A DNA stretch of 64,000 nucleotides from an uncultured Candidatus Poseidoniales archaeon (GCA_964526445.1 CAZGIY010000001.1:20363-84362); one strand, 5' to 3'. Counted from the stretch's first letter, positions 2,908 to 32,418 are shown. The notes: generated by a model from the sequence alone, not told the origin. Translations and numbers: made by a program.

Positions 2908-2987
2908 AAATATCATTATAGGTGCACTATTCATTATTACAGTAAAACCATATTAAATGATTATTATTTATATTTCAAGGTGGAACT

Positions 2988-3314
2988 ATGTGGATGGAGA
3001 CAGCGGTACTTTCTGCACGACCTGGATATGAAGCGCGACTTCGCCGTCTTCTCAAAGCCCGTAGTGCCATAAGACGTAATTCAGAAGGTTGCCTACTTTC
3101 TTGGGTAGGCGAGACTAGTGTTGGAAAAGGCACATTCCTTCTACAAGCACTGTATATTTCAGAAGATGCAATTAGTGATGCCCTCAAACAGGTATCTTCC
3201 CTCGATCAATCTGATGGAGGGCTTGAATCTGTCATCGAGGGCCCGCCTCTCGTGGGTATTTTCGAGGTAGATTCCGAAGATGTTGGTATAATCGATGGAC
3301 GGGTGGGCGCATAA
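2988..3314 (+). CDS. Small ABM/Dabb-like (antibiotic-biosynthesis-monooxygenase fold) hypothetical protein
   Basis: 108-aa ORF preceded by an AT-rich TATA-like tract (tttatattt, 2968-2976). Weak resemblance to the ~100 aa ferredoxin-like ABM domain. The stop codon is embedded in a perfect hairpin. Confidence 0.35.
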   Translation: MWMETAVLSARPGYEARLRRLLKARSAIRRNSEGCLLSWVGETSVGKGTFLLQALYISEDAISDALKQVSSLDQSDGGLESVIEGPPLVGIFEVDSEDVGIIDGRVGA

Positions 3315-3330
3315 TGTACGTTATGCGCCC
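3305..3330 (+). terminator. Perfect 10-bp inverted repeat hairpin (gggcgcataa-tgtacg-ttatgcgccc) overlapping the stop codon of the upstream ORF
   Basis: Read directly from the sequence. GC-clamped stem with a 6-nt loop and no downstream T-tract. It could be a 3'-end stabilising or terminator structure. Confidence 0.3.
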
Positions 3331-3442
3331 TTGGACATGTGTGAGTAGGACTCAATTGCAGTAGAATTCCGGTAAATAGGCTCGCAGTAGGCCACTATTA
3401 ATGAAATACTTGAGGAGAAATGCAAATTTGTGCCTCAGAGCC

Positions 3443-3456
3443 TATACTTGGAGGGG
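3443..3456 (-). terminator. Oligo-T tract (tgattttttcccc on minus strand) about 33 nt downstream of the tRNA-Val 3' end
   Basis: Archaeal transcription commonly terminates at T-runs. The T6 run sits just 3' of the tRNA. Confidence 0.25.
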
Positions 3457-3488
3457 AAAAAATCACTCAACTTACGAGATGATATGTT

Positions 3489-3564
3489 TGGTGGGCTCGG
3501 CCAGAATTGAACTGGCGATCTTTGCCATGTCAAGGCAACGTCATGACCCCTAGACCACGAGCCC
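3489..3564 (-). tRNA. tRNA-Val (anticodon GAC), genomically encoded CCA
   Basis: Manual fold of the minus strand: 7-bp acceptor GGGCTCG/CGAGCCC, D-arm with GG, 5-bp anticodon stem TTGCC/GGCAA, loop TTGACAT (anticodon GAC), T-arm GCCAG-TTCAATT-CTGGC, discriminator A and CCA. Length is 76 nt. Confidence 0.85.
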
Positions 3565-3619
3565 GATGGCACAATCGATGGTGGCGGTCTATTTATCCGA
3601 ATCGGTATGCGTATCAGAC

Positions 3620-3838
3620 TCACGCGATAATCTTTGAGATTCTTCCGGTGCATCCATCTTGGCTGCAGGTGCCAGCTACACGTTTACGTCCGTTGTTCAT
3701 AGTGTGCATCTCTGGTCCTGAAATCGGGCCATAAGTCTTGCATTTCAAGCAGAATCCCTGATACTCGGCCATCTGAATCAGTTTCTGCATTGGCTTTGCG
3801 GATATGAACACTCCGCCAATACCTTGCTGAAAGACCAA
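3620..3838 (-). CDS. Small Cys-rich hypothetical protein (CxxC...CxxxxC)
   Basis: 72-aa ORF with a CLKC...CSQDGC zinc-ribbon-like arrangement. No family recognised. It could be spurious. Confidence 0.15.
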   Translation of the reverse strand: MVFQQGIGGVFISAKPMQKLIQMAEYQGFCLKCKTYGPISGPEMHTMNNGRKRVAGTCSQDGCTGRISKIIA

Positions 3839-3875
3839 TTAATTCAAATCAATGGTTTTTAACAATAAAAGAAAA

Positions 3876-4238
3876 TTATTCTTCTTCAATCAATACTTCA
3901 ACTGGTGGCACTTCCACTTCCAACCGCTTGGACGAAACTTCAGATTCATCAGGGATGTGAAAATCAGAAATTCCCCCCCGCCATTTTGTAGTCATATCCT
4001 CGACTTCCTCGTTTTCAATTTGTGGAATTTCTGAATCTGGATTAAGACTGTACATAATTGGATCAATGGGTTTTACTGGCTCCTCTGTTCGTATAGGTTG
4101 TGCCCTTTCCTCAAGGTGCGCAGTAGTGTGAAAGGTGCCGCATTCAGGGCATCTACTAGAACCAACTTGCTGTATACAACCACATGCTGAACAGACGCTC
4201 AGTCCGTCGAAGACGGCGAGCGGATCCATTTTCTTCAC
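3876..4238 (-). CDS. Zinc-ribbon protein with acidic C-terminal tail
   Basis: CSACG-x9-CPECG zinc ribbon followed by an E/D/P-rich tail. It is translationally coupled to the EF-hand protein gene, whose stop overlaps this gene's start at 4235-4238. Confidence 0.5.
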   Translation of the reverse strand: MKKMDPLAVFDGLSVCSACGCIQQVGSSRCPECGTFHTTAHLEERAQPIRTEEPVKPIDPIMYSLNPDSEIPQIENEEVEDMTTKWRGGISDFHIPDESEVSSKRLEVEVPPVEVLIEEE

Positions 4239-6142
4239 TCCAGAAACATGCTGTCCTGAGGAGCCTCGATTTCGTCTCCAGTTTCTTCATCTTCGATGAT
4301 TACAGTCTCAGCATCATCATCGAATTCCAGGATGGTTCCGAAAATCTCCTCGCCGTCCAATTCGACTCCAACTCTGGAACCTACGTCGATGTCTTCTCCC
4401 TCATCGCCGTCCTCTCCATCGTCTTCAGAATCCTCATCATCATCTGAGTCTTCATCCGAATCCTCATCATCATCTGAGTCTTCATCCGTATCCTCATCTT
4501 CTGAATCTTCTTCTTCATCTGAATCCTCATCTGAATCCTCATCGTCATCATCTTCGGATTCCTCATCATCTGAGTCTTCATCCGAATCTTCACTATCACC
4601 AGCATCTTCGTCTTCTGCTTCATCGTCTGAATCCTTCTCGTCCGAATTGTCTTCATCGGACTCAGTTTCTTCTGTAGAATCTCCCTTCGCTTTTGCTCTC
4701 CACTGTTTCATCAATACCAAATGGGCATACAGAGAACCTCCAAGACCAATGGCACCGAGGATAATCATCAGGATACCGTCCCAATAGAAGCCAGCAGGCA
4801 TTGAACCAGCTCCATCACCAGCAAGAGGTGTCAAGGAATTAGCACAATCGTGAATAGAAGGGTCACAAGCAGTTGAATCACCCTCGTTAATCAGGTTATC
4901 ATCAGCATCAACAAAGGCATCTCCTGTGTGTTCAATGATGCCTCCTTCTCCGCTCACAAATATTCCTAGTCCATTTGCAATCCATAGAACCATGAATAGT
5001 CCGAAGAGTGCATGCATAATTGGCCAAAATATGTCATTCGCCTTCTTTGACATCAATTTCTTTTGCAGGTCAGAGGGGAATTCCTTACTTGTAGCCGAAT
5101 CGCTCTTTTCTTCATTAGCAGCCTTCTCTTCTTCATCTTCGAAGGTTTCGCCAAATGCGACAACTAATTCTTCGATACTTATGCTTCCATTTTCGTCGAA
5201 ATCAACCTCTGCCATGACTTCATCAACATCATCATCTGAGATAACGCCACCACCGAATTGAGTTAGTGCTGAATTAAGTTCTTCCCTGTCAATCTGTCCA
5301 TCATTATTGACGTCCATATGCTCAAAGGCGGCCTGCGCATTGTATCCTGCATCTTTGAAACTCTTGACCATTCTTCCTAGGGGAGTATCTGGTATTTCCT
5401 CTTCTTCATCATCGGAATCGTCATCCTCCTCCTCTTCGGAACCATCACTTTCTTGATCACCATCATCAGCGTCTTCTTCCCCGTCATCTGAATCGTCTTC
5501 TTCGTCCTCACCTTCGGATTCTACTTCTTCAGGGGCATCATCCTCTAAGTCCTCTTCTTCAGAAGCATCTTCCTGATCATCTGATTCTTCCTCTTCAGAA
5601 GCATCTTCCTGGTCATCTGATTCCTTCTCTTCGTCTTCAGGCCCCACCTCTTTGGAAGGTTTGTTATCAGGAGGTGTGAATGTTGATTCTAACTCTTGTA
5701 GGTCGATGACCCCGTTTCCATCCTCATCCAATGTGTCAACCAGGCGATTGACCTGAGATTCAGGCAGATCTGCAATATTCAATGCCAATAGACCAGTCTT
5801 GAATTCCTGTGCTTCTATTACTCCGTCGCCATTGGCGTCGAATCTTTTGAACAAATCTACGACTGAAAGACCAGTTGCATTCAACCAATCAGCGAGAATT
5901 TGGATAACGTCGTCTGCGACGAAAACCACTCCACATTGCGGACATGAACGCGAATCCAAGGGAACCAAAGCGCCACATGCGCCACATTCTCCTAGACTTG
6001 TATCACTCACACCGGTGAAGGATACTCCACACCCGGGACACTCCGTTGAGTCTACAGGGACTACTGCCCTACATGCTCCACACTCGGCCATACCTTCCTT
6101 GTCTGTATCTTCTTCAGTCATGGAAACCCATACTGTCCACAT
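4235..6142 (-). CDS. Membrane-anchored EF-hand calcium-binding protein with N-terminal double zinc ribbon and poly-acidic (D/E/S) tail
   Basis: Two CxxC-x9-CPxCG ribbons. Four canonical 12-residue EF loops: DANGDGVIEAQE, DEDGNGVIDLQE, DVNNDGQIDREE, DFDENGSISIEE. Two hydrophobic helices (IFWPIMHALFGLFMVLWIANGLGIFV and ILMIILGAIGLGGSLYAHLVLM). About 130 aa of a C-terminal DSDEDSDDDE-type tail. Confidence 0.7.
   Translation of the reverse strand: MWTVWVSMTEEDTDKEGMAECGACRAVVPVDSTECPGCGVSFTGVSDTSLGECGACGALVPLDSRSCPQCGVVFVADDVIQILADWLNATGLSVVDLFKRFDANGDGVIEAQEFKTGLLALNIADLPESQVNRLVDTLDEDGNGVIDLQELESTFTPPDNKPSKEVGPEDEEKESDDQEDASEEEESDDQEDASEEEDLEDDAPEEVESEGEDEEDDSDDGEEDADDGDQESDGSEEEEDDDSDDEEEEIPDTPLGRMVKSFKDAGYNAQAAFEHMDVNNDGQIDREELNSALTQFGGGVISDDDVDEVMAEVDFDENGSISIEELVVAFGETFEDEEEKAANEEKSDSATSKEFPSDLQKKLMSKKANDIFWPIMHALFGLFMVLWIANGLGIFVSGEGGIIEHTGDAFVDADDNLINEGDSTACDPSIHDCANSLTPLAGDGAGSMPAGFYWDGILMIILGAIGLGGSLYAHLVLMKQWRAKAKGDSTEETESDEDNSDEKDSDDEAEDEDAGDSEDSDEDSDDEESEDDDDEDSDEDSDEEEDSEDEDTDEDSDDDEDSDEDSDDDEDSEDDGEDGDEGEDIDVGSRVGVELDGEEIFGTILEFDDDAETVIIEDEETGDEIEAPQDSMFLE
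4427..4600. repeat. Coding tandem repeat (30-bp unit gaatcctcatcatcatctgagtcttcatcc x2 perfect, then degenerate copies) encoding a D/E/S tail
   Basis: Direct inspection of the sequence. Confidence 0.7.
5557..5630. repeat. Coding tandem repeat (36-37 bp unit x2) encoding SDDQEDASEEE(E/D)
   Basis: tcagaagcatcttcctg(a/g)tcatctgattc(t/c)ttc repeated back-to-back. Confidence 0.6.
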
Positions 6143-6246
6143 ACCGTTTCGTTATAATCATATGTGGGTTCATTCTATCAATAATGGCCTAATTCCAAGC
6201 AGGATTAAGCGTCAGCGTCAAGAGCCTTCGGCAAGAGGGCGAAGTC

Positions 6247-7176
6247 ATGGCAGGGGTGCTTAGTGGCATGGGAATGCTGCCGCAGGAAGGTTCATGCCAC
6301 CTTATCGAAGAAGGGGTGGATGCTACATTCGCGTGGTTGGATCGCATCAATGCGGCAGGATACCACGCTATGCTGATGACTAGATTGCCTCCCCGCAGAC
6401 TGCTTGGTAAGGTAGATTTGAACAATATTGAAACATTGTGGCTTACTGAACGCGATGCTTCAAATGCCCTAACTCCCAGTCTTGAAAGAATCGCAAGTAG
6501 AATGCGTGATAGAATGGCAGAAAAATCAGGCATCATCATTCTTGATGGGCTTGAGCACTTGATGAGCCAACATGGTTTTGCCGCAGTATTGACATTTCTA
6601 AGGGCTATGATTGATGATTTGAGCACTTCAGCTTGGAGCCTATTGATTCCTGTAGAACCTCTTGCATTTGAAGATACAGAGATTGCAAGATTGCGCAGGG
6701 AGGCTCCGGTATGGAAGATTCCTCAACCAGAAGAAAGCGATGAAGAGGACTTAGAGGATGATGAAACAACGTTCCAAGAGATTATCTCCCCTGCAGAAGG
6801 TGACGAGGAATTACCCACATATGACACTGCAGGTGATGGTTCAATACGACTTGTACATCTGACTAAATTGCCTAGGGCCGGATTCAGTAGTTCTATTCTC
6901 AGAAGAAGAATTCTTGCGTGGAGGAGAATGGGGCTAGATGTTAGTGAACTTGAGCCAGCGATGAAATATCAGGATATTGATAGGGCATATGCTCTCTACA
7001 GGGTTGTTGAGGAGAAGGTCCGTACTGCGGTTGAATTGGATAGGAGAGTCGACCTCCTTGAAAGCGCAGGAGATAGCAGCAATGCCGCGTCTTTCAGGTT
7101 TAGAATTAGGCAACTAACCGGGCTGGAAGAAGTTTGGAGGTCCTTGGATATATTGTTGAAAGATCAATCGATATAA
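6247..7176 (+). CDS. DUF835-family protein with acidic linker
   Basis: Central ...GIIILDGLEHLMSQHGFAAVLTFLRAMIDDL...LLIPVEPLAFED... resembles the archaeal DUF835 domain, followed by an EESDEEDLEDDE acidic stretch. Converges on hutH with an overlap of 13 nt. Confidence 0.5.
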   Translation: MAGVLSGMGMLPQEGSCHLIEEGVDATFAWLDRINAAGYHAMLMTRLPPRRLLGKVDLNNIETLWLTERDASNALTPSLERIASRMRDRMAEKSGIIILDGLEHLMSQHGFAAVLTFLRAMIDDLSTSAWSLLIPVEPLAFEDTEIARLRREAPVWKIPQPEESDEEDLEDDETTFQEIISPAEGDEELPTYDTAGDGSIRLVHLTKLPRAGFSSSILRRRILAWRRMGLDVSELEPAMKYQDIDRAYALYRVVEEKVRTAVELDRRVDLLESAGDSSNAASFRFRIRQLTGLEEVWRSLDILLKDQSI

Positions 7177-29853: not shown

Positions 29854-32418
29854 GTGTGCCGACAAAGATTCTATTTCAGATGGGGTGATGCAGCAGCGAG
29901 GATAGTCATGCGGGTACGCGGTGGGCCACTTGTCGCTTTACTGCTAACTTCGCTTTCAGTTATTGCACTTGCACAAGCTGCAACACCTAGTGGCATGGGA
30001 TTTGTTGGTGCGCATACAGTGGTTAGGGAAAGTTTCGATGAAACGCATAGCGTTGCCCTTTCTCCAGACGCCTCCCTTATTGCCACAGGGACTGAAGGAT
30101 ATGTTATTATTTCGCGCATATCCGATCGTTCTATAGTTGAAAGAATATCAGTAGGGGACCAAGTAACTGCTCTAGAATTCTCTCCCGATGGAGAATATCT
30201 CGCTTTGGGGCTTAGGTCTGATGCCCTTTCGGGGGATGCACTTAAAGTGCTATTCACTGATGATTGGAGGGAGTACGAAAAGACATTTGCTAATGGTAAA
30301 AATCCCAGTGACATTTCATTCTCTGATGCGGGAGATAAGATACTTCTTCAGGGTCAGGACAAAGATGTGTTCGAGTTGTCATTCCCCGAATTTTCCATAT
30401 TGGGTCACATGACGGGGCACCATTTGGATGATATTACGTGTACAGATTATGGATATGGGGGATTGATAGCAGTATCTGGTGGATTGGATGGTAAAATCGC
30501 TTTCTGGGATCTTTCAGATCATTCACTTTCCTCATCAATTGAGTTCGAGGATTCTGAAATTGTTGATTGTTTATTCAATCCATCATCTTCTCAAGTTGCC
30601 ATCTTGACAGATGACGGAAAAGTTAGATCATATTGGTTGAACGGGACTTTGGTTGAAGGCTCAGAACTCGATTTCCTACAAGCTAAGGAGCTCAAGTGGA
30701 GCCTTAATGGAAACCATCTATATGTATTGGAAACCAATATTTTGCCTTCTTTGCAGCGTGTGAGAGTGAATGATTGGATAGTCGATGAGTTCACTTACAT
30801 AGGTCACAATGTGAATGGATTTGATTTATCGGATGATGAAGAGACATTAGTGATTAGTACTGGAACTGTACATACGAGTGTATATCAGTCGACGTACTTC
30901 CAGCAAGGTTTTGGTGAGCCGGGAGATGATTTTGATCAAGATGGAGTGCCAGACGTAATCGATGTTGATGATGATGGTGATGGAATTTTGGATATTTACG
31001 ACCTCAACTGTTCTAGTTCAGATTGTACCAAGGACCCACATCCCAATTATATGCGAAATATTGAGTTTCAAGTATCTGATGAGGAGTTAATCATAAGCGA
31101 TAGCATATCATTCAATAGATCCGATTCTAATGCATTGAGAAATTTGACTACAAGTCTACTTTCTGATGATAACAAAATTAGTGTCGACGAATTAACTTGG
31201 ATGTCAACTGCCATGTGCGATAATATTAGACATAGGGATGTTATTGATCAATGGCATTCAATGATTGAGGTTGAGGGTTCACAATTGAGCAATGGAACAC
31301 TATCCTGTGAACCCGTATCTGGAATTTCTTCCAATGATTTCAGCGATTTTAGTCATAGGGCAACTCTTACTTGGATTACAACATTTGATTTATCGAGTGC
31401 TCCAATTGCGCCCTACAATATTACAGTAAAGGGAATTATCCTTGCTCCTACTGGCTCTTCCGCAATCATTGCCCCACAGTTCCCGGCTTCAATCGATTTT
31501 GCCGATTTGAATTCAGAAAATAATCGAATTGACTTGTGGAATCGGAACGAAACGATTAGAATTGTCTTGATGGAAGAATTGGAGGAAGAAGGACCTGGAT
31601 TGACTGGCTTAGTAGCGTCGTTCATTTCAGACAATTTTTGGATTCCAATAAGCAGTTTCCTTGGAATCTTTATTGGTATCGGATTGATTATCAAGCAAAA
31701 CAAGGACATTTCTAATGCATTGATTCGTGGGGGTAGAGAGGAAGATGAAGAGGGGGAAGATGAAGAGGATGATTATGATGAATCATTCAATGACTCAAAT
31801 CTATATGAATCTGAACATTACGAGGAGTCCGATTCCGCTGACGACGAGTCAACATGGAGTAACGAATCAGAGTCTATGCCTCCTCGGCCAAAACGGCGCC
31901 CTCCTCGAAAATCTACGAGAAGAGTAGCACATGAAGAGTATCCTATCGGTGATTCTACTCCTGTCAAGGCTAGGAGAAAGCGCGTTAGTAGTAAACAACC
32001 AATTGGTTCTAAGCGACACACTCTTTCTGAATCTGTAGAATTGGATTATGATTATGGCCAAGACGGAGTATATCATGATGGTGATTGGGATACAGAGTAT
32101 GACATTTACGAACAGCCCCAGACCAAAGTACGCAAAGTGCGTAAAGTGGAAAGCGTTCCTGAACTTGAAGCGGAAGAATCCAAGCCGGAGCAAAAGAAAG
32201 GAAGAAGGAAGGTTAAGAGGCGCAATAACGAGAAAGGAAAAGCCTCCAGTAAAGCAGTGGATGATGATTCCATCGTTGCAAAGAAAGTTGTTACGTCCAA
32301 GAAACGCAGTTCAGGGTCAAAGAAAACTCAAGATGATGGAGGCAAAGTCTCGTCTGATGATGAAGATTCAGCAATGGACAAAGCATTGGGTATGTTAACG
32401 GGTGATTCCAAGGATTGA
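29854..32418 (+). CDS. Secreted/surface beta-propeller protein with thrombospondin-type-3-like Ca-binding repeats, C-terminal TM anchor and highly charged cytoplasmic tail
   Basis: Signal-peptide-like LVALLLTSLSVIALAQA. WD40/PQQ-like repeats. DQDGVPDVIDVDDDGDGILDIYD. A C-terminal TM segment (ISSFLGIFIGIGLII), then an E/D- and K/R-rich tail. Confidence 0.7.
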   Translation: MCRQRFYFRWGDAAARIVMRVRGGPLVALLLTSLSVIALAQAATPSGMGFVGAHTVVRESFDETHSVALSPDASLIATGTEGYVIISRISDRSIVERISVGDQVTALEFSPDGEYLALGLRSDALSGDALKVLFTDDWREYEKTFANGKNPSDISFSDAGDKILLQGQDKDVFELSFPEFSILGHMTGHHLDDITCTDYGYGGLIAVSGGLDGKIAFWDLSDHSLSSSIEFEDSEIVDCLFNPSSSQVAILTDDGKVRSYWLNGTLVEGSELDFLQAKELKWSLNGNHLYVLETNILPSLQRVRVNDWIVDEFTYIGHNVNGFDLSDDEETLVISTGTVHTSVYQSTYFQQGFGEPGDDFDQDGVPDVIDVDDDGDGILDIYDLNCSSSDCTKDPHPNYMRNIEFQVSDEELIISDSISFNRSDSNALRNLTTSLLSDDNKISVDELTWMSTAMCDNIRHRDVIDQWHSMIEVEGSQLSNGTLSCEPVSGISSNDFSDFSHRATLTWITTFDLSSAPIAPYNITVKGIILAPTGSSAIIAPQFPASIDFADLNSENNRIDLWNRNETIRIVLMEELEEEGPGLTGLVASFISDNFWIPISSFLGIFIGIGLIIKQNKDISNALIRGGREEDEEGEDEEDDYDESFNDSNLYESEHYEESDSADDESTWSNESESMPPRPKRRPPRKSTRRVAHEEYPIGDSTPVKARRKRVSSKQPIGSKRHTLSESVELDYDYGQDGVYHDGDWDTEYDIYEQPQTKVRKVRKVESVPELEAEESKPEQKKGRRKVKRRNNEKGKASSKAVDDDSIVAKKVVTSKKRSSGSKKTQDDGGKVSSDDEDSAMDKALGMLTGDSKD

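Follow-up and report, generated by a model that had tools for sequence, protein, structure and literature searches.

Introduction

EF-hand Ca2+ sensors have been well studied in eukaryotes and in a few bacteria, and our literature search found no study of an archaeal EF-hand Ca2+ sensor. Marine Group II (Poseidoniales) ranks with the most abundant archaea of the plankton; its members are uncultured, and their cell biology is known from genomes only. The part of a survey of calmodulin-like proteins cited here describes bacterial calmodulin-like EF-hands fused to many domains, transmembrane (TM) segments included, with the closest prokaryotic versions in actinobacteria, cyanobacteria, proteobacteria and verrucomicrobia; that part contains no archaeal architecture of the kind reported below (PMC7016017). 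EfhP (PA4107) of Pseudomonas aeruginosa binds Ca2+ with a dissociation constant of 13.7 uM, exposes hydrophobic surface in a Ca2+-dependent manner and mediates Ca2+ regulation (PMC9132961). For Poseidoniales, subgroup-specific modules have been reported to include four families 'with calcium-binding domains', in a passing mention (PMC9258230). In this study, we analysed a window of 64,000 nucleotides (nt) from an uncultured Candidatus Poseidoniales archaeon (GCA_964526445.1 CAZGIY010000001.1:20363-84362), within which a preliminary description had flagged the block 2908-6246; all coordinates are positions within this window. We focused on gene A, whose protein is called A (4235-6142, minus strand), and gene B, whose protein is called B (3876-4229 or 3876-4238, minus strand). 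Judged from sequence and structural models, A is, with a probability that we put at about 55%, a vertically inherited, Poseidoniales-specific Ca2+ sensor or scaffold that is anchored in the membrane, faces the cytoplasm and acts with B.

Results

Domain architecture of gene A

Gene A was aligned with 17 and then with 62 homologues (63 sequences with the window protein), compared with Pfam, PROSITE and the Protein Data Bank (PDB), and modelled with AlphaFold2. The features of genes A and B are as follows.

4235-6142, minus strand: gene A, an open reading frame (ORF) of 635 amino acids (aa) with Pfam matches and more than 1000 homologues of about 580-750 aa
5909-6094, minus strand: double zinc ribbon of A, residues 17-78, each ribbon CxxC-x10-CPxC
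5663-5908, minus strand: EF-hand pair 1 of A, residues 79-160, loops at 102 and 139, N-lobe-like (PROSITE, Pfam)
5393-5662, minus strand: acidic disordered inter-lobe linker of A, residues 161-250 (composition, AlphaFold2)
5138-5392, minus strand: EF-hand pair 2 of A, residues 251-335, loops at 277 and 314, C-lobe-like (PROSITE, PDB match)
4688-5089, minus strand: membrane hairpin of A, comprising a K-rich juxtamembrane helix, TM1, a loop, TM2 and RAKAK (hydropathy, alignment, AlphaFold2)
4397-4687, minus strand: acidic disordered C-terminal linker of A, residues 486-582 (composition, AlphaFold2)
4238-4396, minus strand: predicted SH3-like beta-barrel of A, Tudor/KOW type, residues 583-635 (alignment, AlphaFold2)
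3876-4238, minus strand: gene B, an ORF of 120 aa from GTG 4238 or 117 aa from ATG 4229, encoding a small zinc-ribbon protein

All elements listed in the preliminary description (ORFs, tRNA-Val, ribbons, EF loops, TM helices and acidic stretches) were found where it had placed them, and the domain architecture that it gave for A, with zinc ribbons, four EF loops and two TM helices, was confirmed. PROSITE identified four EF-hand loops (PS00018) in A, at residues 102, 139, 277 and 314, and Pfam returned EF-hand_1 (PF00036, E value 3e-23) and EF-hand_7 (PF13499, 7e-22). The loops follow the canonical DxDxDG/...E pattern, as had been claimed: in all of the 63 homologues, position 1 is Asp and position 12 Glu, with Asp, Asn or Ser at positions 3 and 5, so that ligand positions 1, 3, 5 and 12 are conserved in type. 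Gly occupies position 6 in 60-62 of the 63 homologues for loops 1-3, and in loop 4 this position is Gly in 34 and Arg in 29. Exactly four EF loops were counted in 108 of 120 homologues. The intact ligand positions suggest that A binds Ca2+.

The AlphaFold2 model showed both EF-hand pairs as folded lobes of paired helix-loop-helix units, as in the EF-hand superfamily. In pair 1 the helices span residues 94-101, 111-120, 128-138 and 148-154, with a predicted local distance difference test (pLDDT) of 80-89; in pair 2 they span 269-276, 286-297, 303-313 and 323-330 (pLDDT 79-90). A Foldseek search with the whole model of A gave Ca2+/calmodulin complexes as top matches (E about 4e-6). In the PDB sequence search, the best match of pair 1 was calmodulin (E 4.5e-13), most calmodulin entries aligning over residues 14-69 of the N-lobe, and the best match of pair 2 was calmodulin residues 73-142 (E 3e-11). 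Gene A carries a 'split calmodulin', in which an N-lobe-like pair is followed by a C-lobe-like pair with an acidic disordered spacer between them.

The number of EF-hand pairs varies within the family: most members have two, P0153 has one, and P0074, P0045 and P0031 have three, the third sitting inside the acidic inter-lobe linker. In P0126, an EF-hand is located after TM2, in the C-terminal arm. A six-frame translation of the whole window gave one further PROSITE EF-loop match besides the four of A, namely DDDGDGILDIYDL at about 30967, in an 854-aa WD40 beta-propeller protein (29854-32418, plus strand). The loop DDDGDGILDIYDL probably represents another type of Ca2+-binding loop, unrelated to gene A.

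The N-terminal zinc ribbons of A consist of two consecutive CxxC knuckle pairs, with CxxC motifs at residues 21, 35, 53 and 67, which makes this region a double zinc ribbon; all eight Cys are invariant in the 63 sequences. The Pfam match to DZR (PF12773) was marginally sub-threshold (5e-6, 26.9 bits against a cutoff of 27.3), and DZR is among the precomputed Pfam domains of many A homologues. AlphaFold2 modelled the ribbons with a pLDDT of about 70-76. Because Met8 is invariant in the alignments and most homologues begin there, the true start of A is probably Met8, at ATG 6121, which would give a protein of 628 aa.

Membrane hairpin and topology of A

Hydropathy and AlphaFold2 agreed on the two TM helices that had been described for gene A. 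Hydrophobic segments lie at about 371-397 and 455-478, and the modelled TM helices span 366-391 and 454-492 with a pLDDT of 86-93. The hairpin loop of about 55 residues contains the invariant C426 and C433 and the motifs NSLTP and SSMPAGFYWDG. Ten Lys or Arg residues flank the hairpin and none occurs in the loop. By the positive-inside rule, with which the Cys4 zinc sites fit, we infer that both long arms of A are cytoplasmic and that the loop lies outside. Inside the TM helices, N390, D455 and H474 are invariant polar residues.

A profile of the hairpin retrieved only 55 cluster representatives among 1.84 billion. Compared with Pfam and PDB, the same profile gave nothing significant; the best match, archaeal type IV pilins at E 0.67, was treated as noise.

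The hairpin also occurs outside the A family. In P0142, P0151 and P0184, the hairpin module (TM, GxGG, CxxxxxxC, N(S/T)(L/F)TP, DSMP, TM) appears twice in tandem; these are basic proteins of 609-639 aa that have neither EF-hands nor zinc ribbons (L084 1541-4101; L088 1671-7523). A 211-aa protein that opens with a zinc ribbon is encoded 5 nt downstream of P0142 and P0184, and on the longer contigs of the tandem-hairpin proteins a gene for a VWA-domain protein comes next. Since the tandem-hairpin proteins also precede a zinc-ribbon protein, the pairing of hairpin and zinc ribbon may be older than the fusion to EF-hands. The high conservation of the hairpin, its invariant polar TM residues and its duplicated recurrence in an EF-less protein together suggest that it is more than an anchor.

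Selection on gene A and its acidic regions

The ratio of nonsynonymous to synonymous substitution rates (dN/dS) was computed for gene A against the closest relative. The folded modules gave 0.064 and the acidic regions 0.287, about 4.5 times as much. By module, the ribbons gave 0 (dN 0), the EF-hand pairs 0.015-0.033, the barrel 0.039 and the hairpin 0.108. Conservation and dN/dS indicate that gene A is real, and a low-complexity ORF artefact is excluded by the more than 1000 homologues together with strong purifying selection.

The content of Asp and Glu (D+E) in A is 67% in residues 166-250 and 69% in 505-600, and AlphaFold2 modelled residues 167-249 and 490-582 without secondary structure and with a pLDDT below 50. 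Coding tandem repeats lie in both acidic regions, at 5550-5632 (36-nt) and 4428-4592 (DSDED-type). Among homologues, the inter-lobe linker measures 70-194 residues and the C-terminal linker 54-99, which, with the dN/dS values above, bears out the view that the tails evolve fast and vary in length. Every homologue keeps the acidic character (medians of 54-61% D+E, with 61% for the C-terminal linker). The C-terminal region had been described as a D/E/S tail of about 130 residues; it is indeed acidic, but what was taken for one tail is about 100 disordered residues, after which comes a conserved domain some 50 residues long (583-635).

In this C-terminal domain, 13 columns are invariant across the 63 sequences, and the full-length model shows it folded. 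Modelled alone, it reached a pLDDT of 92.9 and formed five strands, and residues 583-635 are predicted to adopt the five-stranded, strongly bent antiparallel barrel of about 50 residues that defines the fold. The Pfam search gave no Tudor or KOW match up to E 10, with weak matches to RimP SH3 (0.017) and LSM12 (0.22), and the best E value of the PDB profile search was 0.28. By these searches, the barrel is outside the Tudor/KOW families at the sequence level, and its predicted Tudor/KOW-like fold is assigned from structure alone.

Gene B and its coupling to gene A

The start of gene B had been described as overlapping the stop of gene A. The close coupling of the two genes is real, but the overlap gives way to a probable start slightly downstream: B probably begins at ATG 4229, which follows GGAG and lies 5 nt past the A stop, rather than at GTG 4238, which overlaps that stop, because the gaps in homologues are 1-7 nt and the database homologues of B are 117-122 aa long. 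The gap from A stop to B start was 1-7 nt in 63 of the 65 species examined, which suggests that B is translationally coupled to A.

As previously described, gene B encodes a single zinc ribbon with an acidic tail. In an alignment of 68 sequences, B showed one N-terminal Cys4 zinc ribbon, the motifs DPxxYSL and WxGGS(T/S)DF, and an acidic C-terminus; its conserved features are confined to the ribbon and these two invariant short motifs. The Pfam search placed B in no family and gave a weak match to the Spt4 zinc finger (E 0.015). The ribbon of B aligned with the first ribbon of A (hhalign E 5e-5, probability 67%). A word-based search for B homologues outside the neighbourhood of A returned ten close relatives only, all annotated as hypothetical and 117-122 aa in length.

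Distribution of gene A and conservation of the locus

Homologues of gene A account for more than 1000 database proteins, under names such as 'EF-hand domain-containing protein [Candidatus Poseidoniaceae archaeon]', and no fewer than 144 GTDB species genomes encode it, among them the original Marine Group II (MG-II) assembly CM001443. It is single-copy at the locus and holds a fixed chromosomal position in these at least 144 species. The combination had been called unusual in archaea; the family is indeed confined to one order, but within that order it is widespread. The record titles of the genomes that carry A are nearly all Poseidoniales, MGII or euryarchaeote.

Two of the records bear bacterial labels: 'Yoonia sp.' (L004, CAXRJJ010000038.1) and 'Deltaproteobacteria bacterium' (L037, JAOMAZ010000001.1). 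One B homologue in the databases is likewise named deltaproteobacterial. The bacterial-labelled records are probably mis-binned or misclassified Poseidoniales contigs.

The neighbouring features are as follows.

6247-7176, plus strand: DUF835 ('inactivated KaiC') gene, divergent from gene A (Pfam DUF835 2.7e-17)
6143-6246, no strand assigned: intergenic stretch separating A from the divergent DUF835 gene, 104 bp (125 bp with the A start at 6121)
3620-3772, minus strand: small DUF5679 zinc-ribbon gene (about 50 aa) that separates B from tRNA-Val (Pfam DUF5679 1.1e-4, under the gathering score)
3489-3564, minus strand: tRNA-Val(GAC) (ARAGORN; Rfam 65 bits)
2988-3314, plus strand: ABM-like ORF of 108 aa, a context gene on the same strand as hutI and 3' of it

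The listed genes between hutI and hutH were present as described, but the DUF5679 gene (3620-3772) and the DUF835 gene (6247-7176) had been overlooked. The DUF5679 gene is taken as context to the module of A and B. The ABM-like ORF matched Pfam ABM at E 3.3e-4 (21.2 bits against a cutoff of 23.1) and is kept in all 37 long loci. The stretch that A and the DUF835 gene share upstream contains the AT-rich elements TTATAA and ATAAT and is presumed to be the promoter region. A scan for bacterial-type promoters and terminators, which does not apply to archaea, gave no enrichment, and the tRNA was the sole match in the Rfam search.

We retrieved 80 Poseidoniales loci from different species and compared the gap between hutI and hutH and the flank of tRNA-Val. 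The results showed the same gene order throughout: hutU-hutH-DUF835-A-B-tRNA-Val/DUF5679-ABM-hutI-Kae1 in 80 of 80 loci, with DUF835, the ABM-like gene and hutI on the strand opposite to A and B. In the 37 long loci, collinearity extended over about 17 kb and took in the genes for FKBP, methylmalonyl-CoA mutase, glyoxalase and an ABC transporter. tRNA-Val(GAC) was present in all 45 loci examined for it, and tblastn found DUF5679 in the large majority of loci whose DNA reaches past B. The constant order, tRNA and collinearity indicate that the locus belongs to the stable ancestral chromosome backbone of Poseidoniales.

The block had been read as inserted between hutI and hutHU, which we assessed as a recent islet at tRNA-Val that splits the hut operon. 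That a tRNA gene lies within the block between hutI and hutH/hutU speaks for such an event. It is contradicted by the identical gene order in all 80 loci and the 17 kb of collinear sequence, despite an identity of A to the window protein of only 37-45% in most of them, and by the constant presence of the tRNA. The guanine-cytosine (GC) content across the block is 0.43-0.48, near that of the flanks; no integrase or transposase and no tRNA-derived, attachment-site (att)-like direct repeats were found. The block thus lacks the integrase, repeats, GC deviation and variable presence of tRNA-associated islands. These findings leave the insertion without support and make it extremely improbable; they refute any recent event, and an insertion, if there was one, would be older than the radiation of the order. 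The tRNA-Val gene is a conserved resident of the locus and no integration scar. A functional tie to histidine utilisation was also considered on grounds of synteny and set aside: the adjacency to hut carries no functional information, because the whole region from hutU to the ABC transporter is collinear and divergent homologues adjoin an AlaX-like gene.

A segment of about 300 bp that contains DUF5679 and tRNA-Val(GAC) (window 3489-3772) is inverted as a unit between two groups of loci. In the clade of the window (L003, L004, L037, L038 and L040), the order is A-B-DUF5679-tRNA on one strand; in the remaining Poseidoniales loci it is A-B-tRNA-DUF5679, with both on the opposite strand (compare L006 10341-10627 with L003 10370-10652). 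This is a clean, clade-marking micro-inversion.

The DUF835 neighbour and divergent homologues

The divergent neighbour of gene A belongs to DUF835 (PF05763), scoring 63.3 bits (cutoff 33.1) across residues 30-152, and it is adjacent and divergent to A in 80 of 80 loci. In the protein, the DUF835 domain is followed by an acidic linker and then, at the C-terminus, by a conserved helical domain of about 110 aa (window 6832-7173), which gave no significant match in Pfam or PDB (best matches the WRB/Get1 coiled coil, E 0.36, and L15e, E 0.25). The consensus of this C-terminal domain includes LP..GF....LRKRILQWRRMGLDVSELEPAL. DUF835 is an inactivated KaiC (iKaiC) output domain of archaeal response regulators, in which it is fused to receiver domains (PMC5847659). 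The neighbour of A has a bona fide DUF835 domain, as those regulators do, which lends the locus a signalling flavour; it differs from them in having no receiver domain and in being fused instead to the uncharacterised helical domain.

A 25-nt inverted repeat, 96% complementary, has one arm in the acidic linker of A (5536-5560) and the other in the acidic linker of the DUF835 protein (6739-6763). Both arms encode EEDLEDD with identical codons. The repeat may be due to chance in low-complexity sequence, or the two linkers may have undergone recombination or gene conversion that left it behind.

Divergent A homologues were found on short metagenomic contigs, namely P0139 (L083) and P0153 (L087). 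On both contigs, the B homologue starts 4 nt past A and retains the ribbon, D..YSL and W...(S/V)TDF, and an AlaX-like gene follows next after B, unlike in the 80 loci. On L087, a DUF835 gene still lies divergently upstream of A. DUF835, A and B behave as a unit, because they are kept together where the surroundings change, the DUF835 part of this being seen on a single contig.

Discussion

A Ca2+-responsive device, as first suggested for this gene pair, is still the most plausible reading. As we envisage it, the hairpin of two TM helices would anchor a pair of long cytoplasmic arms. The N-terminal one would present the double zinc ribbon, an EF-hand pair, an acidic spacer of about 85 residues and the other EF-hand pair beside the basic juxtamembrane helix, and the C-terminal arm would present an acidic spacer of about 100 residues followed by the Tudor/KOW-like barrel. 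Seawater contains about 10 mM Ca2+, so cytosolic Ca2+ could rise on membrane leak or channel opening. The four EF loops would then bind Ca2+, the lobes would open like those of calmodulin, and this opening would alter the set of partners held by the membrane scaffold. Candidate partners are B, through DPxxYSL and WxGGSTDF, the juxtamembrane helix, and possibly the DUF835/iKaiC protein; the partners and the output of A are hypothetical. Four intact sites, a partner gene, a fixed position and purifying selection imply Ca2+ sensing at the membrane in the ancestor of Poseidoniales.

Several points weigh against this reading. It is drawn from genes, sequence comparison and structural models, and the AlphaFold2 model of whole A has a predicted template modelling score (pTM) of 0.26, with low confidence in the arrangement of the domains relative to one another. 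Arg in place of Gly in loop 4 may lower affinity in the homologues that carry it. P0153, which is 33% identical to the window A, has lost EF-hand pair 2 and has acidic disorder in its place. The invariant polar residues within the TM helices exceed what a passive anchor would need and hint at a membrane-embedded function. As regards the DUF835 protein, its adjacency to A tells little within Poseidoniales, where collinearity covers the entire region of about 17 kb, and the independent support for the link is one contig of 3.9 kb (L087); a functional link of DUF835 to A and B is possible, and conserved adjacency is what suggests it.

The acidic regions invite a different account, which the preliminary description had suggested for the tail: a high-capacity, calsequestrin-like Ca2+ buffer or sink at the membrane, in which about 190 D/E/S-rich residues would bind Ca2+ at low affinity and the EF-hands at high affinity, damping the Ca2+ of seawater. 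Both regions flank canonical EF-hands, and since the D+E level is kept in every homologue through sequence turnover, acidity appears to be a selected property. The likeness to calsequestrin is nevertheless one of composition alone. Pfam detected none of its thioredoxin-like domains in A, the acidic segments are predicted to be disordered, their lengths vary about two-fold, and they evolve faster than the folded parts by the factor given above. Both lie between conserved folded modules in the manner of spacers, the C-terminal one tethering the barrel, and the linker of the DUF835 protein and the C-terminus of B are acidic too; that neighbours carry similar stretches points to a general spacer style of the genome. 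With cytosolic Ca2+ below the micromolar range, sites of millimolar affinity would be unoccupied, and a single membrane protein cannot buffer much. We hold the buffer to be quite improbable. Fast evolution under a constraint on composition makes the acidic segments look spacer-like, and we infer that they act mainly as flexible, charge-repelling spacers rather than as a Ca2+ store.

Two further accounts give the active part to other modules of A. The hairpin could oligomerise into a pore or transport subunit gated by the EF lobes, its two ends inside like those of MscL-type channels or other channels with two TM helices. Its strong conservation fits such a role, as do H377, N390, D455 and H474, which are polar or charged and lie in the TM helices or at their ends, the GxGG after TM1, the basic cluster after TM2 and its existence as an independent tandem module in EF-less proteins (P0142, P0151); the hairpin profile, however, showed no significant likeness to channels or transporters in Pfam or PDB, and no selectivity-filter motif is recognisable in it. 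We consider a Ca2+-regulated pore unlikely. The three related zinc ribbons of A and B and the barrel could instead bind DNA, RNA or some part of the machinery for transcription or translation, making A a membrane tether that sequesters its partner in an anti-sigma-like way, with EF-hands that are structural or modulatory. JGI labels the ribbons as RPABC4/Spt4-like, and the weak Spt4 match of B and the alignment of its ribbon with ribbon 1 of A point the same way. Against this, all the sequence matches concerned are below significance, and the strong acidity of the barrel and of all linkers makes binding to nucleic acids less likely. Zinc ribbons and SH3-like barrels are also generic interaction modules, and searches with A, B and the DUF835 protein brought up no DNA-binding domain. 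There is little to recommend the tether, and the reading of A as a membrane-anchored Ca2+ sensor or scaffold is the one that we prefer.

An extension of this preferred reading is that DUF835/iKaiC, A and B make up a module dedicated to Ca2+ as a second messenger and inherited from the ancestor of Marine Group II, in which the hairpin may be a Ca2+-gated or Ca2+-conducting element. We regard it as doubtful; if true, archaea would have their first defined system of intracellular Ca2+ signalling, in one of the most abundant groups of microbes in the surface ocean. The locus offers a testable entry into the Ca2+ signalling of an abundant uncultured archaeal order, since defined soluble domains (EF lobes, zinc ribbons, barrel and B peptides) can be expressed without cultivating the organism. 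The analysis also corrects a tempting misreading of the locus as a tRNA-linked insertion.

Compared with known systems, A represents a new architecture of the EF-hand sensor type, visible in databases yet uncharacterised, and it introduces no new principle. Calsequestrin shares with A a high D/E content, and the tail of A resembles the calsequestrin C-terminal tail in composition; however, calsequestrin is a luminal, polymerising store built of three thioredoxin-like domains, whereas the acidic regions of A are disordered linkers, predicted to be cytoplasmic, in a protein that lacks such domains. Membership in the calsequestrin family is ruled out by the absence of a Pfam match and the disorder of the acidic regions. 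STIM1, LETM1 and Miro have EF-hands tethered by TM helices and read Ca2+ at a surface, a likeness of logic to A; the EF-hands of STIM face the lumen of the endoplasmic reticulum, and Miro carries GTPase domains. To our knowledge, the domain sets and topology of these proteins are unrelated to those of A, and we know of no homology beyond the EF-hand. EfhP is the nearest characterised prokaryotic analogue, being, as A probably is, a prokaryotic EF-hand sensor at the cell envelope. It has two EF-hands, a signal peptide and a predicted periplasmic location, whereas A has four, predicted to be cytoplasmic, along with its zinc ribbons, hairpin and barrel, and their sequence kinship is that of the EF-hand motif only. 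Calmodulin shares with A four 12-residue loops in two paired lobes of the same order, and, probably, Ca2+ sensing by lobe opening. The lobes of calmodulin are joined by a short central linker helix, whereas in A about 85 acidic, disordered residues (70-194 in homologues) lie between the lobes. As a membrane protein of 635 aa, A is no orthologue of calmodulin and stands outside the calmodulin family proper, whose members are soluble and about 150 residues long; it differs from them by the added zinc ribbons, hairpin of two TM helices and barrel, by the one to three EF-hand pairs found across its family, and by its archaeal lineage.

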